Assembly: GCA_023920165.1 (NCBI GenBank)
Contig: CP089274.1
Location: 5,704,001-5,768,000, forward strand
DNA: 64,000 nt
Source: Curvularia clavata
Lineage: Eukaryota
Direction of reading: 5' to 3'
Under the pieces are notes generated by a model, which worked only from the letters and a program-made list of their open reading frames with translations, was not told the DNA's origin and made no database searches. A program made the translations under genes and the position numbers. Shown here one piece after another: positions 31,485 to 53,559 of this stretch; the stretch's first letter is position 1, and every line of letters starts with the position of its first letter.

Positions 31485-34270
31485 CTACTTCATAGTATCC
31501 GCCAGCTCACGATACATCCTCTTCAGTTCTCTCACATCGGCCTCGAGCTCCTCCACCCTCTCCGTCTTCTCTCCCAGCATTTCTAGTGCTGTCAACTCTC
31601 TGTTCTCCATGTCAGCCAACCTCTTTTCAAGGTCTTCCACCTTCTCCCCCTGTTTCTTAGCTTCATCGACTTCACGCATGAGTTTAACTACTTCGTTGCG
31701 GGCTTCGTCGCGCTGTGCGGTTAGACGAGCAACTTCTTCTTTATGCGTTGCTTTTTCTGATTCGAGACGGCGGACGGCGGCGCTCATACGTTCGACAAGT
31801 TGGACAGACGGACCTGCAGCCATGGTGGAGACGCTGAGCATATCGGCGATAGTGCGGTGGGGCGAGGACGCAGTGTCAAATGCTTCCATGTTTTCAGGGT
31901 CGAGTGTATGGATTGAAGGCGTTTCAAGGGGCGGTGGTGCTGTTAAGCCGTTGAGACTGGCCATGCTATAGGGTATCGAGTCTTGCCGCTGAGGCGTCCC
32001 AGTTTCCGGAGTGCGCACTTTTGAGGTGGATTTGGCCTGGCGCGAGCTGGAGGGTCTGCGCAAGCTGTCGTCAAACATGCGGTCTATCGGTGAGAAAGCT
32101 GAGTCCATACCACTGGATGTGGTTCGGGGATTGGCTCTTCGAGTGTGTATTCCTAATGGGTCGGGCGAATGTCTTCGTTGTGCTATCGAAGGCGAGTCTG
32201 TTCGTAAGTAGAGACCATCTCCGGCCAAAGATGGCGTTTGTGACTCTACTTTCCATTTGCTCTTTTCCTCGTCGAGTCTCTGTTGGAGCTCGGCTTCCCA
32301 TATCTTCTTCTCTTTGTCCAAGTCAGCTCTTGCGTCTTGTGCAGCAGTCTCTGCCTGCGCAAGCTTAGCCTGCAACTTTTGAGCTGCAGTGCGCTGCTCA
32401 TTCAAATCGTTTTCAAGAGTACGGGCGCGCTCGTTGATGCTCTCTAGCTCGTCCTCCAATCGGCGTGCTTTTGAGTTGGCTTCCCTCGCTTTGCGTCTGA
32501 CTTCAGACTCACGCTTCGCAGTCTCATCACGATCTTTCTCAAGAGCAGCAACACGTGAAGTCAGCGTTGTTTCGATTCCTTGCCAGTTCTCAGAAGCAAG
32601 CGAGTACTGTGTCTGCAGGGTCTCGATCTGCCGGAGAAGTTTCGCCTGAGAGTCACCTGTTGCGGACGAAGAAGCCTCCTCAGTCCGGGTTCGGAGAAGT
32701 TCCAGCTTGGATTCAAGGTTCTGAACACGTCAGTATGCATTCGAACGCGGCTGTCCATTTAACTTACTGCAATCTCGCCGCGCAGCTCCAGCTCAGCCAC
32801 CTTTGCCTTTTCCTGTTGGTTTCTAGCTTCATCCCTGGCTGCTTGGAGCTCCTTTTTGGCACGATCTTCCGCAAGCTTCTTCTCTATCCGCAGATTTTCA
32901 ATATCCTCCTGCAGTGATGCTGTAGCCCTTTTTTCCGCTTCCAAGGCTCCAGATTGCACTCTCTTTTCAGCATCCTCAGCGCGTGAAAGCGCCTCATTCA
33001 ACTGCTTTCGAAGTTCAGATATTGTCAACCCTGCTTCCTCACGTTCTGCTCTGATGGTCTCAATGTCCTTTTCGATCTTGCTAACAATCTTTAGCTTCTC
33101 CTGCGAAGTCTTCTCAGCAGCTTCCGCGCGCCGTGCCCTCTCCGACTGCTCTGTGATGCTTTTCTCAGCTTTCGCTAGGCGCTGTTTGAGCATCGTGATC
33201 TCCTTGTCCTGCTCCTGGGTCTTGGAGCGCAACTTTTTTATGGTAGTCATGTGCTTCATTTCTGTCTTGGACAGCTTCTGGCCCTCTTCCATGAGCGCAG
33301 CAATCTGCGCATCTTTCTCCGCCAATTTCTTATCCATAGGTGTCGCTTCCGCGTCTGACGAAGCGGCTTTCGCGGATGCAGCAAGCTGCTCTGAAAGGTA
33401 CGTGAGCTTTGATTGCAGTGCATCAATTCGTTCGAGATGCGAATTGAGCTCTTCGCGGTTCTCGCGTACTGTTTCCTCGTACGTCGTTTCGAGTAAAGAC
33501 AGCTCGGCTTGCAATTCTTCTGGGTCTTTAGACATGTTGGTTAGCGTTGGGACAAGGGCATCAACCGAGGGCCGTGATGCGATGCTGTCGAAAGACTGCC
33601 GAGGAGACGACGTTTGTGGAGTAACATTCGATGGTATGGACGGCATTGACATTGTGGGAACGGGGGTTGAGGTGGGTTGTTCTACTATCACTGATGGGAC
33701 TGGCGGTATCGTCGTCTCTACAGGGGACTTCGTGGGGGCAGCAGTGTTTCCAGCGGGTTGTGGTGGGTTGTCAACCTTTGTCTCTTCTGCCTTGGTGCCC
33801 TCATCTTGCTTTGCAGACGTGACTTCCGCAGTCGGCTCAGACGCCTTGGAGTCTATACTAGTCCTCGATGTATCCGCGGCTATGGCTGGACTGCGCAGCG
33901 CTGGACTTTCTGGCCGCGACCCAAGATCTGACGAGGCCCGTGACTCGGACCGTTCACTGCCTTTATTCACAGCTTTCGCTAGGCGATCCTGTAACCGGGA
34001 GTTTGGCCGACTTCGTGACTGATTCCGCGAGGCTTCTGTGGCGTTAGCATCCACCCAGCTTACTGCTACCATACACTTCTCAGGCTACCCACCAGGTTCG
34101 ACCGCCAACTTCTTGTCTGTCGCCGCCGCCGCTTTGTCTGTGCTGTCGGGCTTTGCTGCAGTATCTGCCACCGCTGGTTTTGCACCTGCAGAGCCATCTT
34201 CAGCCAGAATGGTGTCAAGTCGCGACTCCAGACCAGAGAGAGCGTTGTTCCACCAGCCTTTCCCACTCAT
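31485..34270 (-). CDS. Golgin / TATA element modulatory factor homologue (TMF1/Sgm1-like coiled-coil); introns 34036-34092 and about 32722-32767
   Basis: N-terminal WW...LESRLDTIL; LMEEGQKLSKTE block; C-terminal AGPSVQLVERMSAAVRRLESE...ALEMLGEKTERVEELEADV (TMF_TATA_bd). Confidence 0.85.
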
Positions 34271-34895
34271 ATTGCCGATTTCTTCTTTTTCTGCACAAGT
34301 GTTCAAAGCAGTTGTTGTCTAAGAAGCTTCGCTAGCCTTCGCCGCGCATGTGTCCCTCGCTCGTATATGTGCGCATCGCTCAATTGCGCAAAGAGGCCAG
34401 GCTGGTCGGATCTTGGTGGTACGCGGAAAGCCCAGGTGTGGCGGGGAGTCGCGGGCTTACGACAGCTAAGGCATGGGCTGATATGGCGTTCCGAGGGAGT
34501 ACTGGCGGGAATCCTTAGTCCTGAATCCACCGGGATTCTCGTGTATTACATAGAGAGCAAAGCGTTCGTCCTCGTCGTGATTCGTGTCGTTAGCAGTTAT
34601 GGGTCGTCATGCTGCAGCCCAGGCGGCCAATCAGACGCCGATTGGCCCGCCTTCCGCAACGCGGCGCTGACGCAGCAGCCGTCTCCTCTTCCAACGCTAC
34701 ACGATTGAGCTCACTCTGCAACACTCATGTTTATTGATCTTGCATTCTGTTTTAATTGTCCACTTCTTCAATTTTGATCTCCGCTTGCTAGTTTTCACTT
34801 CCAATCAAGACTTCTGTGACTAAGATCCACTTACCATTACGCTCATTCCGCAGCTTGCAAAGGCCGAGAATCAAGCTTTGGTAGTCGGGGGCCTG

Positions 34896-37800
34896 TTAGT
34901 AGGAATCTTTGCAATACATGGGAGGAATCTCGGCCAGCAGACTTTTTGCATACGCAGCTGCTGTGGCTGCCGCGTAGTTTTGCCAGCCCTTGTTCTTATG
35001 CGAGTCTGCATAGTCACAAATCCCGCGGATAACCATGCATGGATATTCTCCCATAACCCCAGCTGCTTCCATCTCGAAGCAAAGGACTTCGTGTTCTTGC
35101 TGCAACCTCTTTCGCTCCGCAACTGAGATCTGAAGTTGGTTGCTGGATGCAATAGTGCCAAAATGTACAAAAGGAGAGTCAGGCAATCGAAAAGCGGCTT
35201 TACCCCGTTTGGCGCGCGAGATAACTTTCTCTCTGTCACAACAGTCCTTGCAGTCGTCAGATCGAGTGCCTTGATGCTCGTATGTGTCTGCGAAGAGACT
35301 ATCATGTGCGGTCCCCGGATCGTCGTATTGGTTCTTGCGCCTCTCATCAAGCTTGAGACGCATTTGTTGCAAGACTTGGGTAATGTTCTGGAAACAACCT
35401 TTCGCACGGAAGCTGTTGATAGCAGCCATCAGGTTGTGATGAATACCGTTGGTATGCCCATGAAATTCGAGGCGCCCTGAATCTTTCCATGCGCCTTCGT
35501 CATACTGAATAACCCCTCCATGCTTGCGTCGTGGATAGCTGACAACCACGTCCCCCAGCACAATCTCGCCAGTTCCATAATGTGGTACACCACCGGCAAC
35601 ACCGACTACGAGAAAGTATTTGATATTAGGAAATCCAGCACTCATCTTGGCGGCAAGAATTGCAGTATTGCTAAGCCCCATTTTTGTTGGGACTCCGATG
35701 ACAACGTTATGCTTCCCAATTCGACCACCTAGATAATAAACATTGTCATATTGAACATCATCTTGGGGATACTCTTCGTCCATGACAAGTCTCGCAGCCT
35801 CTTTTTCCAGAGGAAGAGGAGATATCCACCCAATTGTAAACCGATGGTTCCTCATTTTGGGGTTTGTTGATTCATTTCGTTGTTGAGGTGGCAAGTCCTT
35901 CTTTGCAGTCTTACACGAGTCGGTTTCCGTCAAAACCGTTAGCTTTTCGCGGCTGAACTTGTTCTCCAGATCTCCCGCAGCTGACAAATACTCCCCTTGC
36001 GCATGGCCCTAAAGGTTGTCAAGACTCGTTTCCTCCTGAATACTAGACTACTTACTGTCATAGAAGTACTGGAAGAATGCTTTCTGTTGGATGTGGCTGA
36101 CGTATCGGAAACAGCTTCGAACTGGCTATCGATCGGCGCCGCGGATAACGAGACCAAGCTGGACCCTAACCCGCTGTCGGAGCAAGTCAGGTTGGCGCTT
36201 TGGTAGGAAGATGTTGACCGAGACCTTCTGAGACTACCAAGTCTCTCAAGATTCTGAGAACTATGACCAAAAATCACAGCACCACCAGGTGCAAGTAAAC
36301 CAGGGTGTTGAAGAGCCGTATCGTTGATCCCGAGTTTGCCCTTAGGAATAAGCAACTGAATTCGATCAGAATGCCCTTCTGCGTTCTCGCTTACACACAA
36401 ACATGATTCGAAAATATGATCAGGTTTGTGCCAGTAAATGTTGTCGACTAATCTTAAAAGACCGCCTTTGGTACTCCCTTCTCTTTGTTGAATTCTCATG
36501 ATATCAGAGACGCTGACAGCCAGATGATTTTCCCCTTTTGGGACTTTGTTCCAGATTGAGCACGCGGTCTGGTTATCGGTAGGCCTGATCAGTTCGCCAA
36601 AGCCGCTGCCAAACAGGTTCATGGCATGAATGGCTTTAGTAAAGTCAACCCAGCCTCTGCCTCTTGCGGGGAGCTCAGTGATGCGGGGCTTGATGCGTTC
36701 CTCAACCATTGCTATAGCGTTGAAGTCAAAACCTTCAAGCTGCTGAGGGGGTATATCACTCCCCTCTGCTTTATCTTGGTAGCTCGAAACTTGCTCCAAA
36801 ATATGCAAGATGTCTTCAACTCTGTCTTTGAGACACTCCGTTGATTCATACAACTTGATTCTTTTGTTAGTTTCATTCGTGAGAACCCAAATAGCAGCCG
36901 CTTTGCCGACTCTAGTTGCAGGTGCTTCTTCCAATTCATGTGGTTTGAAGAGGAGTTGGTCGGAGAAGTCGTCCTGCTGGCTAAACCTCAATGATGCTCG
37001 GACCAGATGTAATAATGAGCTTGCGCCATCAAACATCCAGGCTCGATCATCTTCGACGTCAAACAACAAAATAAACTTCCCAGCAATCCACATGAGTCGT
37101 TTGACGTATTGATCTCCCACATGACGGGTTGGTATGTCCTTGAGGCCAAGAGTGAAACTTCCGGAGCTAGCAATAGTGTTTTTGCTTCTTATGGTTTTCC
37201 TCAAGAGACGGTCACCGTCATACGGTGTCTCGAGCCCAGACCAACCAATGTCGTAATCAGCTTCCGCAGCCCCTAAAAAGTGTTTCTTTTAGCGAACATC
37301 ATACTCGTCATATTGGAGAGCGATTCTTACCCGCATAGCTTCTTGCAGACGCACACCAGCCAACGATATGACGAGATGTTTCGACGTCGAAAATACGGAT
37401 AATATCGTCTGAATCATTTCTAGCGATGCTTTGCGCTCGAGGATCTGCGTAAGATATATGACTTCCATCCTCATTGGCGAGCACATGCCATGTCACAACA
37501 TGTTCTTCATGCTTCGTGCACACCAGCATGGTACAGAATCCCTTGATGAACGGCTTGCCATCGAATATAGTAACGGTTCGTGCTTGGCATAAAGCCACCA
37601 TCAGAGAAATCGGGATCTCTAGGCCAGTGTTCTTCTGAGGCCTCCTCGGTATTGGATAGCCAGTGACAACAACCGGGTTCCTGAACAGGTGTCTCCAGCA
37701 TTGTCCAATCGCGTTGTCTGTCTGCTCTTTATCTTCGTCGAATATATATTCGATAGTAAACGAAACAAGAGAGTGTTTTGTTGTTCTGTAACCTGGGGGG

Positions 37801-40800
37801 GAATAGTCGTTTTCGAAGAAAGACGGTATGCAATAAGCGACCCCGGATTCAGATGGAGAGGAGCGAAGGGCCGCACCGAGCCATGCAAATTGTTCACCAA
37901 CTTCAGCAATTGAAACAGCTGTTCCGAAGGCTTCAACCAGGAATTGAGATCCTTGAATCCATGCGATGAGTTTAGTACCATTGGGTAGTTCACCTGTTGA
38001 GACACCATTAGAGTCACAATAATCGCAAAACCAGAAGAGGAATCTTACATTCATGTCGGTGCTCGGGACCACTACCGAGCACATTCTTCAACAGGAGGAT
38101 TATGTCTTTTCCAGTGTACGGCCAGGTCTGAGATAAATATTCAGCACAAGTCTGTGCTTGAACATTTTGAGCAGATCCAGTTAAGACGATGACTTTCTCA
38201 ACCACGTCTTGAGGCTTTCCTTGGTACAATTGCTCTGCAAAAAACTTTAAAGGATCCCAGAGTATCAAGAGACGTAAGGTATGAGCTTTCGCTGGAGTGT
38301 TTTCACTGATGATTTTGCATGCTGGGAGAAGCTCCAGAATGCTTTGTCTGATCGCCATTATGTGATTGAGCTCTGATGAAACCAGGACGAGCTCTCTTAG
38401 TAATCTTGTGACAAGATGTTCAAAGACCGGATTTCCAGCGACGATATCACTGCAAATCGGTACCGTAATCATGCGGTTGCTCTCTTCATCTTCTGTTGAC
38501 TCCTTATCCGAAATCGGGGTTGTAGTTGTGTTGAAAGCTGTATGAAAGTTGTCATGACCCGCCCGGCCCTTTAGAGATGTTTCATCACATCTCAAGTCAG
38601 CCTCCAGTTTTGCATCCTTTGATTCGTCCTTTTCCCTGTTCCAGCGGCTAATCTTTTCTTGAAATGACATAGTATCATCGATATTGTTCTGGCTTGGGCA
38701 GTGTCTTTCAGACCAAACGTTCATGAAATGTTCAGCAATACTTCTACAAGATGTAAGTCAGTACCTCGAACATGATAGAAACTCAGATCCCAAGTTTGAG
38801 AGTACCGACCTTCGATTTCTGTGGACAAACGCCATTGCGTCTCGATGTTCTTGACTCTCCGAAACATGCAGAAGTTCCAGAGCACAATTATGAAGTATTT
38901 CAGGAAACGCTTCATGGATTCTTGCCATATCGGAGGTATCGGCTCTCTCAGGAAATATTTGACCAAACAAATAGTCAGCTGTTTGAGAAACCTGGATGTT
39001 AATTTCGGCGATCCTTCTCGAGAGCAGTGGCATTATCCATGGTTCGTGTTTAGACGGAATTTGTCCGTTCTTGTACAGCATTTCAACATCGCCGTCGATC
39101 TTGCGTGTATCGACTAGCATCTGAATCACTGATCGATGTCCTTTCTTCACTGCCAGAGTTAACGATGTTTCTCCATTATGGTCCTTGGAGGTAACATCGA
39201 CTCGGCCAGTCTCAAGCAGCATCTTGACCACGGCCTCATGTCCTCCTTGTGCCGCGAACATTAATGGCGTTCGACCTGAACAATCCACTGTATTGACATC
39301 AGTGGCATCGTTCTTGAGCAGGAATGCGACTATGCCCTTGAACCCAAACTCCGCCGAATATGAAAGTACATCCCTATCTTGCAAGAATCGGAACTGGGGC
39401 CCAATCTCCGATTGTTTGAATTCCGCGGGGTAATCGTTGGCGTTGCCCTTGAGGATTGCTTTTAGGGCCTCTTCGTTTCCAGTAGCCATAGCAGCGAACA
39501 CGGGGCATCCGTAACGCTCCCTTACAATCTCCAGACCTGACGGAGATTTTGGGTATGCCCTGATAAGCTCTGGCATGTTGTATTCCACAAGCAAGTATAA
39601 AAGGCTCACGTTTTCGGAATACCTCCGTACCTCAGATCTTTCGAAAAGGTTGTGTAGCTTCACCCAATTTGTGAGTGGAAATGTTTCAAGGAATCGTCTT
39701 TGGGAGACACCACCTAATTCCGCTGCATTTGAATGGAAAAGCAAATTGCTGACCGAATATTCTAAGAACGGGGATTTTGCAGAAACGGCGTGAGTTTCAA
39801 TTTTTTCAAGACAGCACCGCTTCAGCCACTCATGACACTGACCCTTCTGGTCTTCTCTTTGATCAGGTCCAATAGATTTGAAAGAGAGATGGCCCATAAG
39901 GAATTGCCGCACCGATTCGTGGATGAATCGGACTTGTCGAAACCCATCGTTGGTGACATGAATCAATCCCTGGGATGTTTCGCTGATAAAATGCTCCCCC
40001 ATATCCATGTATGTGTCCTCTATGGCCCAGCTCGATACATGTCTCTCTTCACGGGTGGCGGAATACAACTCCCCAGGACTCAGTGGGCGCTTGGCGAAAA
40101 GCACTAGCTGAAAATAATGCTTCTCGCCTGGTCGGATTGGCAATAAATCTTGGAATAGTTTGTGCAGGTTAGCTGGAATCTCCAGTAATCTCTGCCAGAC
40201 AGATTCAATACCGCTTCGATCAAACTTCCTGTTTAGAACACGTATGACCAGAACAACCCATAGGAAGACTCTTGGCGAAATTTCTTGCAGTTTGGTTCTG
40301 ATCTGATCTGCTAGTTTGTTGCTTCCAATCTTTAAGTTATCGTTTATGTAATTCGAAATCGCGTGAGCGTGTCCTTGCTTGGCTTCTAGCAACATCTCGA
40401 GTTCATCTTTGATAGAGATCCGAGAGAGATTTCTGCTCGATAAGCAAACTTGGAAATTCGTGCCGCACGACCCAGCAACAGCGTGAATGTGCTCAAAGAA
40501 CTTGATCATATCTCTTGCCTGGTCTTTTGGACATTCGTCTACTGCGTCGATGAAACAAAGTATTGGGCCACATCTCCGTACAATTTGTTCTATCAGTAGT
40601 TCGAGAGCTTCAATTGTCCATTGGCTGTCTTGCTCGCCATTTGGCTTCGAGATGTTGAGCTTATCGAAAACGTCCTGGAGAGCGAGATTTCCTTCAAGCA
40701 GTTGCACTGATAGTGACCTGTATGCTCCAGTAATTGAGCTTTCAAGATCATTGGTCGGTGGCGTAAAGAAGAAAGAAATTGTTTTGATTCCCTTGGCCCA

Positions 40801-41865
40801 TTCTTGAGCGTGGCTGAGAACAAATTTCATGAGCGTAGATTTCCCCGCCCCTAGATTTCCCTTGATGTGTAGGATCCAGTATTTTTCATTTTCCGGCGTT
40901 GTGTCGAGCCACTTAACGTATTCAGGCGTGTGCAAGAGCCATTCGCACGTATGAGGGTGTGCATTTTTTACAATCCTTTTGCCTACATCCATGTCATCGA
41001 ATCGTAATGAGTCCATCCATTCCTGCTTTCGTTTATTGCTGAGGAATGAAGTGCAAAGTTCTGAGGATGATCCAAGTGGCATATTAGTCACTTCTGTCAT
41101 ATTCTGATCGAACTCTATACGGTAGTTTACCGCTTCTCTCCGTGCTTGCTGGCTCGAGTGGTTTCCCAATTCCCTGTACTGGTCTTGCTGGGAACGTGTG
41201 AGATGAATGTCTTCCGCCCATGTACCAGTTGAAGCAAGTTTCCAGGTGTCCATGAATGGTAAATGTTGTCCAAACTGTTTAGGCGTTTTCTGCGACGGAA
41301 TCATGTCACCAAAAGGGTTAGCATTCTCAAGTGCATCTCTCATCTCTTCGAGAGTTTGCGCCATGGATGTTTGGTTGCCAAGATACGTTCCCTCACAGGA
41401 AAAGAATTCGATTGATGCGAGTGCGAGCAGTTCTGGTCGGTTCAAAATATAGCCGAACCATTTGCTGTTTCTCAAGTCTGAATTCGATCTCGTTGAGCCT
41501 GAGTAATGTTGATCTGAAGGGTTGCGTGAAACGTCAGATAGGTATACGTAGCATTTCTCCGCATTCTGGTGCCAGCGGAACATCGATTCCATCGCATGTT
41601 GTAACTCCGTTCTGTTGGAAGTGTCTATACAGCAGGTATCTATCCAGCAAAATTCGAGGCGGTCTCTTGCGGCTTGTTCCATGCAAAAGCGAATCTTCTG
41701 ATAACCTGGCTTGTTTTTTCCCTTGCCGTCCATTGCATCTTGAAAAGTATACTCATTTTCCTTTACCTCCCATGAATGTGAAAGAATCGCATATCGTGGA
41801 ATGTCTTCTTCTTCGCGTTCGACAAGGCTGAATTCGTGATCATTGTTCCGTTGTAAGAATCGCAT
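34896..41865 (-). CDS. NLR-like fusion protein of about 2247 aa: HET - NACHT - ankyrin - uncharacterised domain - PNP_UDP; exons 41865-38810, 38743-38049, 37993-37331, 37272-36056, 36008-34896
   Basis: HET motifs YAILSHSW and WIDTCCID; Walker A GNLGAGKST and Walker B CFIDAVDEC; ankyrin GRTPLMFAAQGGH and GETSLTLAVKKGH; PNP motifs GVAGG, FEMEAAG, IRGICDYADSHKNK. Four 47-66 nt GT-AG introns each preserve the frame; the spliced length of 6744 nt is divisible by 3. Confidence 0.8.
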
Positions 41866-42319
41866 TGAGGGGGAATGCGCGTCTGAAACAGGAGGTTGAC
41901 TTAGAAAGCAATCAGCTAATATGCGCCGAGTATCTGGGAAACTGTGCTCTTCAGATAGTTTGTGGACAAGAGTTTGTATGTGCCAATTGACATCAGGCTG
42001 AATGTAGTAGATGAACAACGATGTAGTATCACGTGCATAAATCGCCTTGTGTCACACATAGCTTGATATTTAATTAGGCAACACTCTTGCATCTTCTTAC
42101 GCTATCTCCAAGGCGATTGAAATGACAACAGGGATTCCTGCAAGTAACCATGTGACTGTGTGGTATCACGTGACTAGTTCGGCTCAGGTATGCACTACTT
42201 CTGCTATCTCTGACGACGCCAAGACCATCCTTTTGCTTTTCTCTGTGCTCATTTAATAGACCGGTTTCGCCTCCTGCTTGCACACTGTAGCTGGAGAGTC
42301 CATGTTCAAGTCTCTCAAA

Positions 42320-45295: not shown

Positions 45296-46065
45296 CTAAA
45301 CAAGATCTATACCCTCTCTCTCTGCCGCCTGTAGAATATAACTCCTCGTCTTGGCATCTGGCGCTAGCTCCAACGGCAGGTGGCCATCGTTGTCCTTCTT
45401 GTCGAACTCAGCACCTAGGGTCAAGAGTAGCATTGCTGCATCCCCGTGTCCCTCGCTTATGGCATGATGGAGTGCCGTCATGCCGTCCATATCTGTTGCG
45501 TTCAAAGGGCTCTTCGCATCTATCAACGCCTTCATCATAGGCACGCTACCCACTGCTGCTGCACGATGCAGTGGCAACTGTCCCCTTTTGTCTTTGACTC
45601 GCGCCGACGCTGGCGGCTTTTGTGCAAGTAGCGTACGAGCGATATCGAGGTTGATTTTTGAGGCGCAGAAATGCAGAGCCGTCTGGCCGTTGTTGTTCTT
45701 CGCATTCACGTCGGCATCCTTGGAGAGCAGCAAGTCTACAATTTGCTCGGAGTCTTTCCGCGAGCATGCCATCATCAGCGGGGTCCAGCCTGAGCCATCT
45801 GTGGCGTCGGGATCAAACGACTTTGCTTGTACAAGCGATTGTACGATCGGGAGGTGGTTGTAGGAAACGGCCCAGTGTATTGGGAGGCGATCGTCGGGGT
45901 CGCGGAGGTTCGCAAGCTTGGGGTTGGCGGCAAGCAGAGAGTCGACGCGGGATGCTGGCATGGGTTAGAAGAGGATCACTCAGGTGGGGGAGGATAGTAG
46001 TTTGACGGACCTTGGCCTTCTCGACAGGCCTCGTGAATAGCATACTTGGCCTTGTATTCTTCCAT
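45296..46065 (-). CDS. NAS6: Ankyrin-repeat 26S proteasome assembly chaperone (Nas6/gankyrin); intron 45955-46010
   Basis: About 6-7 ankyrin repeats (RLPIHWA, GWTPLMMA, GQTALHF, GQLPLHRAAAVG, GMTALHHAISEGH); size of about 237 aa. Confidence 0.82.
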
Positions 46066-47846: not shown

Positions 47847-49183
47847 GCTTTTCTCTTATACACGAGTAGAGCTGTGAGAGATGACGGGGTATTCAAAGTG
47901 AGTAGCAAGAAGATCAATATTGTAAGATGTAACATCAAGATAATTAGCGCGATCTTAGCGCTGAACCCAGTGGCTGCATGCAGCGGGACCAATGAAAATG
48001 CTCGCTGCCGTTTACATCTGGAAAGACGTATCAAAGGGTGCGCTTACACAAGCTTCTCAAGTAGTACAGAACAGGCGGTATGTGTATAAGTAGAGTCATT
48101 TGTACATTTATGGCGGGCATCCAGGTCCCGCCATGAAGGATACTGTCAGGCGGTGAGATTTTAGCGCCAATAAGACTATTCCATCTTCACTACACTATCT
48201 ACTCTACTCGATAGATTATGGACTAAGCCAAGTTGGGCGAATCATTTACCCCGATTTAAGGCCGGGAACAACTCTCCAACACGTGGGGCCAATCTCACCA
48301 GCCATGCCAAACACAGGAATATCTCACGTCAATCTTTCAATGTTGCGTCTCGTACCGCCCTTAACCGCTCGTCGTCTACTCTGTACATCTCAATGCACCC
48401 AAGACAAAATCTAGATAAAAAAAGTAGCGCATATTCTTCGCATCCGTTCTCAGCCGCACATCATTTTTCAGCCGCACCAGATCTTGTTGCCTTAGCGGCT
48501 CTTCAGCTTATTTCTCCTTCCGCAGCCAGACAGCCTTCTTTCTTTCAATCCTCATAGTTCTGCCATTGACTTTTGCAGCCAAATGCCCAGGCTTCGAAAC
48601 TGCAAAACAAATTCCCTTTTGAGCTGATGTTATACCCTCAACCCTCCGCCCATGCCTTTGCGTCCTCCAAGCTAGCTAGCCAGACCGTTGCCATCAAAAC
48701 CTATAATGGAGCCTGAAGAAATCAACTGGGCTGGCCATATAGCCGAGCGCTTCGGCGATCGCGGTCTTCAGCTCTGGAAGAGTCCTGCTAGAGACCTCAT
48801 CAGTGCGATCTATACGATATTGAGCTCACTGGACATCAGTAGGACGGAGTACAATTCATTTCGGGCTCTGCAAAACATCTTTCCCCCAAGCAATGGAACA
48901 ACAGGAAGCCATTATCATGATTCGGCCGATATTCCGACGTTGCGAGATGCTATCCTGTATATACAGCCACCTGGGAACTACAATTACCAGGTAATCGGGA
49001 AGGGTCTATACTCCCAAATAGAATGTAAGCTCACTGCCTTACCCTCGTAGATGAAAGCTCAAACCAGGTGAATGCAGTCCGTACGTTCAAAAAAAGAGTA
49101 AATGGTATGTAGAATATCATTCCCTTCTATGGTCCGCGAAGGTGGTTCCAACATTCAAAATAGGGCTCGTAACGTCGCTACAA

Positions 49184-51391
49184 ATGGCACGAATGGAAGC
49201 CACAACGATCCGAAAATCCATTGTAATAGAAACCATTCCGAACGCCTCTCTTGAGCAGACTGGGTTTGCAAAATCCCTCCTTTCCAGAGCGATGTTCGCT
49301 GATTCACTTTACTTTTCGCCTTCGCCGTATACTCCGCTCCCTGACAATTCCTGGTTTCGTTTGGTAGTTCTGCTTCCTGGGGAATTTGAAGATGACATAT
49401 TCTGCCACCTTGTGCCTATTCAAAAGGCACATGCCCAACATATGTACGAAGCACTGTCTTATACTTGGTCCCCTCTTGGTCTCGATGATATGAGAGAGGA
49501 GGAAACCATCACATGCAATGGACACTTGATAACAGTGGAGGAAAATCTTGGGCTGGCCCTTCGGTGGTTACGTTCTATCTCAGAACCTAGAATCATTTGG
49601 GCAGATCAGCTTTCGATCAACCAAAGCGATAAGAGAGAACAGAGTGAGCAAGTGCAAGACATGAGTTCTGTTTACGCTCAGGCCAAAGATACTATTATAT
49701 GGCTTGGAAGCGATGAACGCAACAATGCCTGCGAAGCATTCAAGGCTGTATGTCGACTAGTGAACTCTTGGGACGCAGCAGAACACGCCACATACCAAAT
49801 CTGGAATGAAAATACGAAGACTTACGACCATCAGAAGCCTAGCGGACGATTCTCGGAAAGCGATAGATCGGCATCGTTCGACCTTGGAGTCTTGTATGGT
49901 AGCACTTGGTTCGAGCGCCGATGGGTCATTCAAGAAGCAGCTCTCTCCAATTCAGCAACCGTATGTTGGGGTAGAGAAAGGGTTTCATGGCGGCATGTTG
50001 GACTGGCAGCTGCGATTCTGAGGATGCAGCACCTCAATTTAATACAAAAATGGTCCCGTTCCGGAATGGATCACTGGGTCTCCGGGGTATATCACGCATA
50101 CTTGATCTTTCGGCTTTCAAAGCAAAAGGCCCTTCCCTCAATGGAGCTATCTTTTCTCAACTTACTCCGACTTACACAAGCTTTTCATACGACAAAGTCC
50201 CACGACATTGTTTATGCGCTATTAGGCATCACTACTACCGACAACAACCCTAACAGCGAGCAGTTCCTGGATGTCGACTACACAATCCCCGAGCATGATC
50301 TTTGGCTGAAAGTAGCTGAGAAGATGTTGAAGACTAATTCTCTTGCGTTCCTTTGCAATGCAGGACTGGAGAAGCGCAGCAACGAAGTTGGAGAGCAAGC
50401 TTCGGCTCCTAATGTCCCAACATGGGTTCCGACGTGGGAACGCAATACTACTGGCATGATGGCACCTTGGACTATTGGCTCTAGCTACAATCCTTCCAAG
50501 GGCTTTTCATTTAGGAGATGGAAGACTGACTGTGCAGCACATCTCGCGGTCGACGGCATCCAGGTCGGCACCGTGCTGTGGACAAGCCAGATGATTAAGG
50601 ACGGAGTTGCCACGAACGCTGACGAGCTTCGCCGGCTGGTTCGCCTACCAGCTTTCCAATCGTCTCCCCGCAATTCTACGGCCCCAAAGTTCTTGGGGCT
50701 GATCAAAGGGCAAGCTTCAAATCTCTTTTCAACCCGTAAAATTGCTGCTAGCAAAGAAACCCTCCAACGGGTTGCGAGAGCCCTGTCCGCGGGTAGAGAT
50801 GCGTACGGAGCACTTGACGACGGCCGTTCATCTCTCACAAGCGACTTTGCCGCATTTCTCGCCCAAACTGAGTATTTGGAGAAAGCAAGACCTCCCTGGC
50901 GTCCCGTGGTGGATGAACGTGTAATAAGTGAGCAGGACAAATATCGTCTCCTAGTTGAAAAAACAATGCACAAAAAAGACGTGCAACGGTTTCTTAAAGT
51001 CGTAGACATGATCTGTGCCCGACGCAGACTCTTCGTTACATCAAGTGGTCATCTCGGATACGGTCCTGAACATACCAGACCCGGGGACGTAGTGGTCATT
51101 CTTGGAGGAGCAAATATGCCACTTATGCTCCGGAAGAAGGAAGCGCTATACCAATTGCTCGGCGAATGCTTCATCGATGAGATTATGTCGGGCGAGGCAG
51201 TTCAGGCTATGCAGAAGGGAGAGCCCCTGCGAGGTCATTTCGATGTCGAAAATCTGGTGAAAGGCTTGTTCAGCTTTGAAGGGCTTGAGAATGCGGACGC
51301 GGATTTGCTGCAATCGGAACTTGGCAGGATTATGGATTATCTAGAGAAGGAATACCAGGTACTCAAAGTGAGACGATTCGACCTCTGTTAG
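49184..51391 (+). CDS. HET-domain protein of the HET-6 type; 5' end uncertain
   Basis: FRLVVLLPG, YEALSYTW, WADQLSINQSD, WFERRWVIQE, DIVYALLG, PTWVP, RRLFVTSSGHLGYGP...GDVVVILGG...LLGECFI. Confidence 0.88.
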   Translation: MARMEATTIRKSIVIETIPNASLEQTGFAKSLLSRAMFADSLYFSPSPYTPLPDNSWFRLVVLLPGEFEDDIFCHLVPIQKAHAQHMYEALSYTWSPLGLDDMREEETITCNGHLITVEENLGLALRWLRSISEPRIIWADQLSINQSDKREQSEQVQDMSSVYAQAKDTIIWLGSDERNNACEAFKAVCRLVNSWDAAEHATYQIWNENTKTYDHQKPSGRFSESDRSASFDLGVLYGSTWFERRWVIQEAALSNSATVCWGRERVSWRHVGLAAAILRMQHLNLIQKWSRSGMDHWVSGVYHAYLIFRLSKQKALPSMELSFLNLLRLTQAFHTTKSHDIVYALLGITTTDNNPNSEQFLDVDYTIPEHDLWLKVAEKMLKTNSLAFLCNAGLEKRSNEVGEQASAPNVPTWVPTWERNTTGMMAPWTIGSSYNPSKGFSFRRWKTDCAAHLAVDGIQVGTVLWTSQMIKDGVATNADELRRLVRLPAFQSSPRNSTAPKFLGLIKGQASNLFSTRKIAASKETLQRVARALSAGRDAYGALDDGRSSLTSDFAAFLAQTEYLEKARPPWRPVVDERVISEQDKYRLLVEKTMHKKDVQRFLKVVDMICARRRLFVTSSGHLGYGPEHTRPGDVVVILGGANMPLMLRKKEALYQLLGECFIDEIMSGEAVQAMQKGEPLRGHFDVENLVKGLFSFEGLENADADLLQSELGRIMDYLEKEYQVLKVRRFDLC

Positions 51392-51770: not shown

Positions 51771-53559
51771 TCAACTAGTCTCCCCCATACGTACAACCGA
51801 CACAACAAGACGTTGAGTTTGAATCTGTCCCCACACTGAAGTTATATGATCCACCTTTGTACCAAAACTCAGCCAGAAAAACCCATTTTTGGTCTTGACC
51901 GTGAGTTCATTGCGTAGTGGCCATTTTTTTGTTTTATCATACCCAATGACGTCCCATGGCACACCAGACTCTTGGTATCTGTCTGCGTATATGAGATGAG
52001 ATTGATTGAATGGACATCCATCATCAAGGACCCCTAGATCGAAGCCAAGGAATGGTTTCCTGCGGTAGCAAAGTAATTTTACTGGGATATAGTCGGTCTT
52101 CACAAGTATTTCGAGTTCTAGTAGCAGAGCGATGTTTGACAAATCAAGAGAGTAGCCATTATCCAAGAACATGTTGCCAGTATGGTCCCAATACGCTGTT
52201 GGAAAAGCTGATATGATGTTGACTTTTTCGGATGGCTGAACGCTCAGTGTCATTTTGCGGCAAGATGCAAATGCCTTCGATAGAGCAACACGGGAGTCCA
52301 TGACAATATGAGAGTTGCGAATATCTTGACGACCATATGTACGTCTTAATATCTCCAAATTGTTTTCAGCAAGTCGACAATAGAAATGCGGGGCCAGCTT
52401 GCGCAGAAATATTCCGTGCATCAGGCTACGGCCAGTAGGATCTATTCCCAAGGGCATAAAATAAACTGTTCGAAGAGATCCACCGGTACGTTGGATATTC
52501 ACAAGTTGTAGAGAAACTTTGGTAGATAGGGATAGTCCTTTGTTTGTCGTGGAAAATTCTCCAAGTGAATTAGAAGAAGCAACCACATTGTGTTTGTCGG
52601 CAAAATTTGCAGGGCTTGGAGCGAAGCACCCGATAAATTTCTGGTATGAGTCCTGCAAGCAGCGCCAGAAAAGAATGGTAAAGTCATTGTCACGTTTTAC
52701 GATTTCCTCTTGTAAGCGGCGAAAGGCTTTTCGCCCTTCGCCATAGATCAGGGGCATGTTGACATCGAAAATCCCTAGCAGACAGTATGCTACGTCCTCT
52801 TGTCGCTTAGTTTGGCGGCCGGCCGCCCAAGCCATTCTTTGTGCGATGCAGAATGAGGACAGCTCGCGCGCACCTAGAAGCGCTCTCTCATGGATTTTGG
52901 TAAAACGTGAAATAGACCGAGCATAATCAGCTTTGGTACCTATAAAATCCCAACTCTTGTTAAAAAATTTGAGTACAGGTGGCGCAATCAGCTCTTGCAG
53001 TGTCCAGCCGCGCGAGAACCAGCGACAGTTTTGCATCATGTCCTCGGGCTCATGTCCAGGAATCAGGTCTTCCAGAAAGGCATAACAGACTTGGGCTGAT
53101 TTGTACCATTGGAACATGGAGTTGATGGACTCTGTCAGCTCGGCGCTGCTCGACTTGTCAACTAAAATAGGCGTAGATAGCGTTAGCTTCTTTTCACGAA
53201 CGCTCATACTCTACGCCTTCTGAGCCCATGCGAGACAATCATGGAAAGGAGAGGAACGACTCACTTGTACATCACACGTTAGCAAAGCTGTTTTCTCTAC
53301 CTTTGGTAAGTGCAACTTACCTGCAACATGTATCGACCCAAAAATACGTGAGACCATCTGCTGCCGTTTGCCTGGCACAAGCACGTATTTTATCAAACCC
53401 TAACTTTCTTTGGCCGGTCCCTTGTACCATATCTTGATACGTGACCTCTTGATTGTCTGGACCCCAGGTGTGTGAGAGAATGGCGTAGGGTGGGATCTCT
53501 TGCCCCGTGAACTCAACAAGGCTGAAGCTGCCATCATCCTGTATATGTAGGAGACGCAT
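51771..53559 (-). CDS. HET-domain protein (HET-E-type N-terminal domain, no NACHT), 542 aa; exons 53559-53322 and 53161-51771
   Basis: MRLL...PPYAILSHTWG...FWVDTCC|IDKSSSAELTESINSMFQWY...WFSRGWTLQELIAP...EDVAYCLLGIFDVNMPLIYGEG. Confidence 0.88.
53162..53321 (-). other. Putative [D1,2] stwintron: internal intron 53320-53264 nested in the donor of an external intron (G at 53321 + 53263-53162)
   Basis: Minus strand reads TGC A|G-[GTAAGT...GCTAAC-14nt-AAG]-TGAGT...GCTAAC...TTTAG|TT GAC AAG. It has two branch sites, and two-step removal gives CC-IDKS. Confidence 0.75.

Follow-up and report, generated by a model that had tools for sequence, protein, structure and literature searches.

A Curvularia clavata gene in which a HET-NACHT-ankyrin receptor runs into a PF28131 module and a C-terminal PNP_UDP domain, a recurrent variant of the fungal NLR plan

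A 64,000-nt stretch of the Curvularia clavata genome (contig CP089274.1, positions 5,704,001 to 5,768,000; hereafter the window) carries on its minus strand, between 34896 and 41865, a gene of five exons whose spliced product of 2247 aa reads, from the N- to the C-terminus, as a HET domain, a NACHT NTPase, ankyrin repeats (ANK), a large conserved module here named X and a nucleoside phosphorylase-type PNP_UDP domain. The gene is well supported and its architecture is a recurrent variant of the NOD-like receptor (NLR) plan and not a unique one: X-PNP exists as a conserved unit on its own in many Pezizomycotina and has been joined repeatedly behind NLRs. We consider it probable that the locus is a single expressed gene for an NLR with control over an ATP-nucleosidase module. 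The catalogued plan of fungal NLRs consists of an effector, a nucleotide-binding and oligomerisation domain (NOD) and repeats; here, a large conserved domain and a putatively nucleotide-destroying enzyme follow the repeats.

Five consecutive stop-to-stop frames (38758-42051, 38014-38757, 37308-38087, 35939-37288 and 34896-36008) are linked by four introns (Table 1), all of the GT..AG type and with fungal-looking branch sites. With the first in-frame ATG (41865) taken as the start, the spliced coding sequence (CDS) comprises 6744 nt, i.e. 2247 codons and the stop, contains no internal stop and gives the junction peptides HRNR/RSIAEHF, HRHE/CELPNG, SYA/GAAEADY and SMT/GHAQGEY. These introns and in-frame junctions had been proposed in an earlier reading of this DNA (hereafter the original prediction) and were reproduced exactly, as were its single product of about 2247 aa and its domain order. 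Indeed, Pfam matches HET, NPHP3_N/NACHT, Ank and PNP_UDP_1 in that order on the spliced product, with an intact PNP_UDP at the C-terminus and no match in exons 2 to 4, and the few internal ankyrin repeats that it foresaw number about four. The gene region (35500-42000) is AT-richer than its flanks (GC 0.43-0.49 vs 0.50-0.56), and the GC content at third codon positions is uniform over the five exons (0.44-0.48).

Support for the spliced form comes from assembled contigs and from a deposited protein. Contigs of runs from three studies skip the predicted introns, namely all four in X1 and three each in X5 and X12; none of these runs is on record as RNA, their kinds are guessed ('RNA?') and the evidence consists of the joints seen in the contigs. 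X1, which differs from the window by ca. 2%, has one contig of 10,047 nt that covers 34400-41995 in six gapless pieces with joints at all four introns. In X1 and X5 the skip at intron 4 amounts to 49 nt with two other letters between (net 47), the fourth joint of X1 being displaced by a substitution at the exon edge. X12, from the third study and near-identical to the window, joins 38743 to 38810 and thereby removes the stop at 38758 in frame; this intron-1 joint is found in contigs of two studies (X1 and X12).

Exon 1 of the window is 100% identical to a C. clavata entry (USP74567.1 / A0A9Q8Z2J4, 'hypothetical protein yc1106_01841', 3131 aa), which equals the 2247-aa model over its first 2232 residues and therefore uses the same four introns. 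The deposited protein then takes a fifth intron, from near 34943, into a TMF-like neighbour (TMF_DNA_bd). This fifth intron was rejected, since in X1, X5 and X12 the contigs continue through its donor without a break and retain the stop at 34896; the deposited model is therefore read as over-merged and the product as 2247 aa. The TMF-like neighbour lies at 32762-34084 of the window (merge region 34300-34950). Contigs of X1 and X5, two runs that share an organism code, also skip 51 nt at 34779-34829, ca. 67 nt past the stop; this skip ends TG..AG on the gene strand, not GT..AG, X12 covers 34787-34829 without it, and it may represent a strain deletion or an intron of the 3' untranslated region displaced by local differences.

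Table 1. Exons, introns and domains of the C. clavata gene, in window coordinates
Feature	Position	Strand	Remarks
Exon 1	38810..41865	-	HET, NACHT, ankyrin repeats and first ca. 60 aa of X; ends in phase 2; start shared with the deposited model
HET domain	41494..41793 (aa 25-124)	-	PF06985, E 1.9e-8; motifs YAILSHSW and WIDTCCID
NACHT/NPHP3_N NTPase	40432..40950 (aa 306-478)	-	PF24883, E 6e-28; Walker A GNLGAGKST 40834-40860; Walker B LCFIDAVDEC 40531-40560
Ankyrin repeats (ca. 4)	39085..39519 (aa ca. 783-927)	-	Ank_2 match at aa 834-924, E 2.7e-17; counted by eye from the translation
N-terminal start of X within exon 1	38812..38997 (aa 957-1018)	-	27 proteins match by phmmer
Intron 1	38744..38809	-	66 nt, GTCGGT..TAG; old intron within X; retention leads to the frame stop at 38758; joint in X1 and X12 contigs
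Exon 2	38049..38743	-	Variable N-terminal part of X
Intron 2	37994..38048	-	55 nt, GTAAGA..CAG; skipped in X1 and X5
Exon 3	37331..37993	-	Best-conserved core of X; GQCW 37695-37706 (Cys1349), IKGF (Lys1401), TWHV 37482-37493 (His1420)
Intron 3	37273..37330	-	58 nt, GTAAGA..TAG; skipped in X1, X5 and X12
Exon 4	36056..37272	-	C-terminal part of X, conserved to ca. aa 1800 (nt 36287), then Ser-rich linker
Intron 4	36009..36055	-	47 nt, GTAAGT..TAG; skipped in X12; net 47 nt in X1 and X5
Exon 5	34896..36008	-	Linker, PNP_UDP domain and stop codon 34896-34898
PNP_UDP domain	ca. 34920-35852	-	PF01048, E 1.5e-11; FEMEAAG 35058-35078; IRGICDYAD 35004-35030

The place where the NLR meets X lies inside exon 1. 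The last part of this exon is homologous to the extreme N-terminus of standalone X proteins, for instance to residues 4-57 of P0002 (see below), a protein that by blastp is collinear with the window product across the intron-1 junction. Since X begins ca. 60 aa before intron 1, the NLR/X boundary falls at about aa 930-957, where the frame of exon 1 reads through without a break, and on this alone the rival view of two separate genes fails. Intron sites were also compared with those of 53 related metagenome loci, counts being taken over the loci that cover each site. At the intron-1 site, 4/15 loci (L004, L006, L007 and L023) show an alignment break, a frame change and a GT donor in matching codon phase, L004 reading CGGAG/GTGAGT where the window reads CGAAG/GTCGGT; a break with a GT donor is found at the intron-2 site in 10 of the 32 covering loci and at the intron-3 site in 24 of 39. 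As these sites are common to X loci, introns 1 to 3 are old introns of the X family. The original prediction held that an NLR had fused to a downstream Pfs-type gene; this stands insofar as an NLR has been joined to a unit that stands alone elsewhere, but X begins before intron 1.

X corresponds to Pfam family PF28131, of ca. 850 aa. The window's database entry and most relatives carry it in precomputed annotation, from which membership was read because PF28131 is newer than the Pfam copy searched. What had originally been described as about 900 aa of uncharacterised domain is a large family already delimited by Pfam, with many other partners. Searching exon 3 among longer proteins gave 106 matches, most with PF28131 and very often also PF01048, the named ones all belonging to Pezizomycotina. 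An exhaustive HMMER search with exon 4 gave 1547 cluster representatives at E<=1e-3 and 448 at E<=1e-30, and the family comprises at least 1547 clusters at 50% identity. Prokaryotic relatives were confirmed in 0/98 candidate stretches of a limited genome scan, which is weak evidence of absence.

The window X keeps 64 of the 66 positions that are conserved at >=90%. All 103 aligned members share a Cys, a Trp, two Gly and a Trp-His pair in the core; 102 of them also have a Lys, and 84 of 102 have an acidic residue 14 positions past the core His. The corresponding motifs of the window are GQCW (aa 1347-1350), IKGF (aa 1400-1403) and TWHV (aa 1418-1421). The GQCW...H pattern may resemble transglutaminase or papain sites. 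X had no match in Pfam (E up to 5), PADLOC, NCBIfam, PDB profiles (whole module and exon-3 core) or the ESM Atlas; within the family, a weak PADLOC match to SduA (E 0.016) was seen on P0005 only, and an NCBIfam rad18 match on exon 2 (E 0.014) was taken as chance.

When slices of the window protein were compared with 271 proteins, 47 were X-PNP alone, 37 had something before X-PNP, 55 had X only and eight read PNP-X-PNP (e.g. P0064); standalone X-PNP proteins of ca. 1200-1300 aa are common. Pfam was further run on 96 X proteins, that is 15 hand-picked ones and all 81 with >=330 aa before X or with >=150 aa after X without PNP. Behind X, these have mostly PNP_UDP_1, but Peptidase_S8/subtilase in P0051 and P0057 and a TatD DNase in P0085. 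Before X they have NACHT or NB-ARC (18), protein kinase (5), caspase C14 (2), LRR, WD40, DUF7580, DUF6590 and the DNA-binding or chromatin domains TEA, Myb, Zn_clus, C2H2, PHD, PAH and Clr5. Proteins in which X stands behind TEA, Myb, Zn_clus, Clr5 or PAH (P0009, P0011, P0046, P0062, P0132, P0137, P0184, P0190 and P0221) may be real nuclear X proteins or merged gene models. In one metagenome locus (L004, 9971-14691) the order is reversed, with a PNP domain upstream of X.

The architecture is not unique but recurrent: a NACHT or NB-ARC domain stands before X in 18 of the 96 scanned proteins, and 10 of these 18 also have PNP_UDP as their last domain. They include NACHT-X-PNP proteins of Fusarium (P0013, P0018, P0019, P0026, P0030 and P0033), NACHT-ANK-X-PNP proteins of Monosporascus (P0249 and P0251), a PNP-NACHT-ANK-X-PNP protein of Microdochium (P0254, 2612 aa) and a PNP-NB-ARC-TPR-X-PNP protein (P0186, 2511 aa), while P0248, P0256, P0024, P0041 and P0225 are NLR-X forms without PNP. 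Three classes are represented, Dothideomycetes, Sordariomycetes and Geoglossomycetes (Glutinoglossum P0248), and at the DNA level a NOD lies upstream of X at two distinct metagenome loci (L008/L030 and L028). In the Fusarium proteins the segment that separates X from the NOD matched no repeat family, even at E 0.5 (in P0030, NACHT spans 277-430 and X starts at 722), so that X stands where sensor repeats normally stand.

At the level of sequence, the joins of NLRs to X arose on several independent occasions. NLR-linked rows are scattered on a tree of 143 X domains, and on a 63-row IQ-TREE phylogeny the NLR label needs seven changes, a single NLR clade being rejected by the approximately unbiased (AU) test (p 3.9e-78, log-likelihood difference 883). 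This tree holds 11 NLR rows and 52 others sampled across clades, P0248 being omitted for its long branch and near-identical Fusarium rows thinned; the NLR group of the test was defined by Pfam, but was named after the first tree had been seen. HET together with X was seen only in the window's own entry (0/106 exon 3 matches, 1/25 exon 1 database matches): the HET head is special to the window protein and probably to its closest counterpart (see below). Elsewhere, a HET-domain frame (PF06985, 3e-12) lies ca. 560 nt past the X stop on the same strand in L017 (11302-15267) and in L027, and NB-ARC lies downstream of X in L025, which shows X again beside NLR-type parts. Several origins of the NLR-X-PNP layout in at least three classes of Pezizomycotina point to a functional tie between NLRs and the X family, and by Rosetta-stone logic the join nominates X-PNP proteins as NLR-linked executors or as guarded targets.

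The same architecture in other proteins and split orthologues, both of which the original prediction suggested looking for, have their counterparts, the former in the NOD-X-PNP proteins above and the latter, as a candidate, in a gene pair of Phaeosphaeriaceae sp. PMI808. The window X is sister to P0002 of this fungus with a support of 100. P0002 (KAH8688668.1, X-PNP) aligns to aa 966-2245 of the window protein with 58% identity, and P0373 (KAH8688669.1, HET-NACHT-ANK, flagged 'partial') to aa 50-949; the two have consecutive accessions, lie on one contig of 21,748 nt and together tile the window protein. Very probably, this is the same linkage of NLR and X-PNP in a second Pleosporales family, whether as a fusion that annotation has divided or as true neighbours, and it probably arose before the two families diverged. 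Identity to the pair rises from 39% in the NLR part to 58-64% in X and 74% in PNP; the AU test neither favours nor rejects a grouping of P0373 with the window NOD (p 0.129; 45 of 127 rows, P0254 and P0256 left out). The same locus being over-merged in one genome and split in another is an annotation problem that would hide such architectures from NLR surveys.

The C-terminal enzyme looks active, as judged from its motifs, and its core looks constrained. PNP_UDP_1 is matched with 44.6 bits against a cut-off of 25.1, and PADLOC assigns the domain to PDC-M60C (E 1.3e-12) and to an effector model of the cyclic-oligonucleotide-based anti-phage signalling system (CBASS; E 1.4e-10). Against PDB, the family profile matched methylthioadenosine/S-adenosylhomocysteine (MTA/SAH) nucleosidases in the PNP part only (best 4bmx_A, E 7.6e-12), FEMEAAG and IRGICDYAD aligning with the EMEG and SD motifs of the solved enzymes. 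Of 11 other NLR-fused X-PNP proteins, 10 have retained both the EME and the IRGICDYAD motif; the remaining one is truncated. Between the window and X1, 17 of the 30 differences listed (of 202 in all) over 34908-36686 are synonymous, with seven synonymous to one non-synonymous in the PNP core. In a tree of 111 PNP domains, the PNPs of the window and P0002 group, with support, together with all 12 N-terminal-type PNPs, apart from the bulk of X-linked C-terminal PNPs, although branches are long and the placement is unsure.

In the NLR half, the features of NLR/STAND proteins are present, namely a NACHT-type P-loop NTPase with intact Walker A and B and repeats C-terminal of the NOD; the protein departs from the tripartite plan in not ending with the repeats, ca. 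1300 more residues (X and PNP_UDP) following in one frame. HET, a TIR-like death domain, is matched with 35.2 bits against a cut-off of 22.5 and keeps 59 of 82 conserved positions, a second NACHT profile (PF05729, E 8.8e-4) falls below its cut-off, and only two of 25 conserved positions are missing from the ankyrin part. Exon 1 has 1967 relatives at E<=1e-3, the best at 40-46% identity.

Compared with known systems, the N-terminal half resembles the HET-NACHT-ANK and HET-NACHT-WD40 receptors of fungi, such as HET-E, HET-D and HET-R of Podospora anserina, which have the same N-terminal HET, NACHT with Walker A/B and superstructure-forming repeats (PMC12881547 and PMC4986451); the window protein differs in running ca. 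1300 aa past the repeats into X-PNP and in its far more diverged NLR half. Podospora HET domains are able to induce cell death (PMC12881547). The C-terminal domain belongs to the same PNP_UDP superfamily as the PNP_UDP(Pfs)-NACHT/NB-ARC receptors and the bacterial ATP nucleosidases Cap17 and Detocs DtcC, consistent with its match to a CBASS effector, and Rousset et al. (10.1101/2023.01.24.525353) showed, for the PNP domain at the N-terminus of a fungal NLR, both cleavage of ATP and toxicity in E. coli. In those receptors the enzyme is N-terminal, whereas that of the window is C-terminal behind X, and ATP cleavage by its clade is predicted.

Standalone X-PNP proteins (PF28131 and PF01048; e.g. 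KAH8688668.1 of PMI808 and P0004 of Xylogone sp.) start at X and share introns with the loci of the family, whereas in the window protein a complete NLR stands before X and shares its frame. The order NOD, (repeats), X, PNP is shared with P0013 and P0030 of Fusarium, P0249 and P0251 of Monosporascus, P0254 of Microdochium and P0186, whose heads differ (none recognised, or PNP), which represent independent joins and none of which has HET. In mammals, NLRP1 has repeats followed by FIIND and a C-terminal executing CARD, with CARD8 as its standalone counterpart, and in plants some NLRs carry integrated domains as decoys or sensors. The likeness to NLRP1/CARD8 is an analogy of layout only, with no sequence relation found and X about three times longer than FIIND.

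That fungal NLRs usually carry their effector at the N-terminus, as had been assumed at the outset, agrees with passages of PMC4986451, PMC9815663, PMC12258605, PMC10197012 and PMC12881547 that place PNP_UDP at the N-terminus only. In the Sordariales NLR table S3 of PMC12258605 (files 13-17 lying outside this scope), all 349 PNP_UDP_1 annotations are N-terminal of any NB domain in the same row and 0/349 are C-terminal of it. Full-text searches for PF28131 or a C-terminal PNP_UDP in NLRs gave known catalogues only, the table of eukaryotic PNP architectures in 10.1101/2023.01.24.525353 being a place where X-PNP may be listed; as far as these searches reach, the architecture has thus not been found in print, in keeping with its having been called undescribed.

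Under the reading that we favour, the resting protein would be inactive, and a cue sensed by the ankyrin repeats, by X or by both would permit NACHT-driven oligomerisation. Clustering would switch on both ends, that is HET and the C-terminal PNP as a Cap17-type ATP/dATP nucleosidase, with ATP depletion and cell death or arrest as the outcome. The gene would unite in one protein an NLR and its X-PNP executor, partners that other fungi may encode separately. We infer this receptor mechanism from sequence, and several points weigh against it or against the single product. Besides the nature of the runs given above, the contigs are uninformative on transcript ends, and X1 extends 2728 nt into the neighbouring gene, so that contig continuity alone is no proof of one transcript. 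The donor of intron 1 (GTCGGT) is weak, a product of 1035 aa retaining this intron is possible, and the nearest relative is annotated as two genes. The HET match spans profile positions 1-101 of 146, i.e. two thirds of the profile. The NLR half lacks 122 of 371 family-conserved positions (>=80% among 120 relatives) vs 8-58 in four relatives, and the end branch of the window NOD measures 1.21-1.25 vs a median of 0.15-0.16; this half may have a relaxed or changed function, and either rapid adaptation or weakened constraint could account for its divergence. Finally, many X proteins are without PNP and some NLR-X proteins end at X; judging from such forms, X itself, and not the enzyme, may be what NLRs acquire.

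These points are taken up in part by other explanations. X-PNP could be an attacked component of immunity copied behind the repeats of an NLR as a decoy or sensor, HET being then the sole executor and the tail reporting tampering. We regard this integrated bait as rather unlikely, in spite of the repeated and independent joining of X-PNP to the C-termini of NLRs with varied heads and NODs (HET, PNP or none; NACHT-ANK or NB-ARC-TPR), of the NLR-X forms without PNP, and of the site behind the repeats, which is where candidate integrated domains of fungi (Pkinase, SPRY, zinc fingers) lie according to PMC12258605. Against it, the window and nearly all other fused forms retain catalytic-type motifs, the PNP core looks constrained, and in Fusarium X replaces the repeats and does not follow them. 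We know of no attacker of X-PNP. Alternatively, by analogy with NLRP1 and CARD8, X could be a Cys-His enzyme or self-processing domain that restrains the C-terminal enzyme until a trigger leads to its release or activation, with the NLR as an added regulator. The invariant Cys, Trp and His (103/103), the near-invariant Lys and the frequent acidic residue fit such a release switch, as do the position of X always directly upstream of toxic-type enzymes (PNP, subtilase S8, TatD DNase) and the coexistence of standalone X-PNP and NLR-fused forms, as with CARD8 and NLRP1. It is nevertheless quite improbable, given that even permissive searches of Pfam, PADLOC, NCBIfam and PDB match X to no protease, transglutaminase or ZU5-UPA family, and that the X-only proteins have no enzyme behind. 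A broader conjecture, which we hold to be unlikely, is that X is the switch of a second, NOD-independent class of fungal immune proteins (sensor or targeting head, X, toxic enzyme) captured repeatedly by NLRs, its invariant Cys-His core restraining the enzyme and freeing it upon a trigger; if true, fungi would have their own counterpart of the NLRP1/CARD8 layout and the Curvularia gene would be a receptor with two different executors.

The strong divergence of the NLR half could also mean that a HET-NACHT-ANK gene ran into an X-PNP neighbour in a neutral or decaying fusion, with only X-PNP at work and the NLR half drifting. The conserved positions missing from that half (33%), its very long branch, the well-kept X and the gradient of identity to the PMI808 pair, highest in PNP, are what such decay would give. 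Yet ca. 955 codons upstream of X are still open, X1, despite differing by ca. 2%, is gapless throughout the gene, the Walker motifs and the ankyrin part are kept, and the linkage probably predates the split of two Pleosporales families; we hold decay to be very doubtful. Least credible of all, and close to being dismissed, is a pair of genes: the NLR would terminate at 38758, X-PNP would be transcribed from a promoter of its own, and their join would be read-through or an assembly artefact. The two models of the closest relative would suit this view, and the fact that X1 merges an unrelated neighbour too means that continuity proves little. However, X homology starts within the NLR frame, the intron-1 site is ancestral to X, and exon 2 starts 14 nt after the stop, which leaves no room for a promoter. 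The original prediction had itself named transcripts ending after the ankyrin exon, at 38758, and an assembly chimera as outcomes that would speak against it; the intron-1 joint in contigs of two studies removes that stop, and the window and run contigs are collinear, hence no chimera.

Finally, other death-domain and repeat genes lie near this locus in the window, namely an ankyrin protein at 45299-45964 (minus strand) and a HET-domain protein at 49055-51388 (plus strand; PF06985, 1.8e-26), and a further HET-like stretch was found at 52881-53559 (minus strand) by tblastn only.

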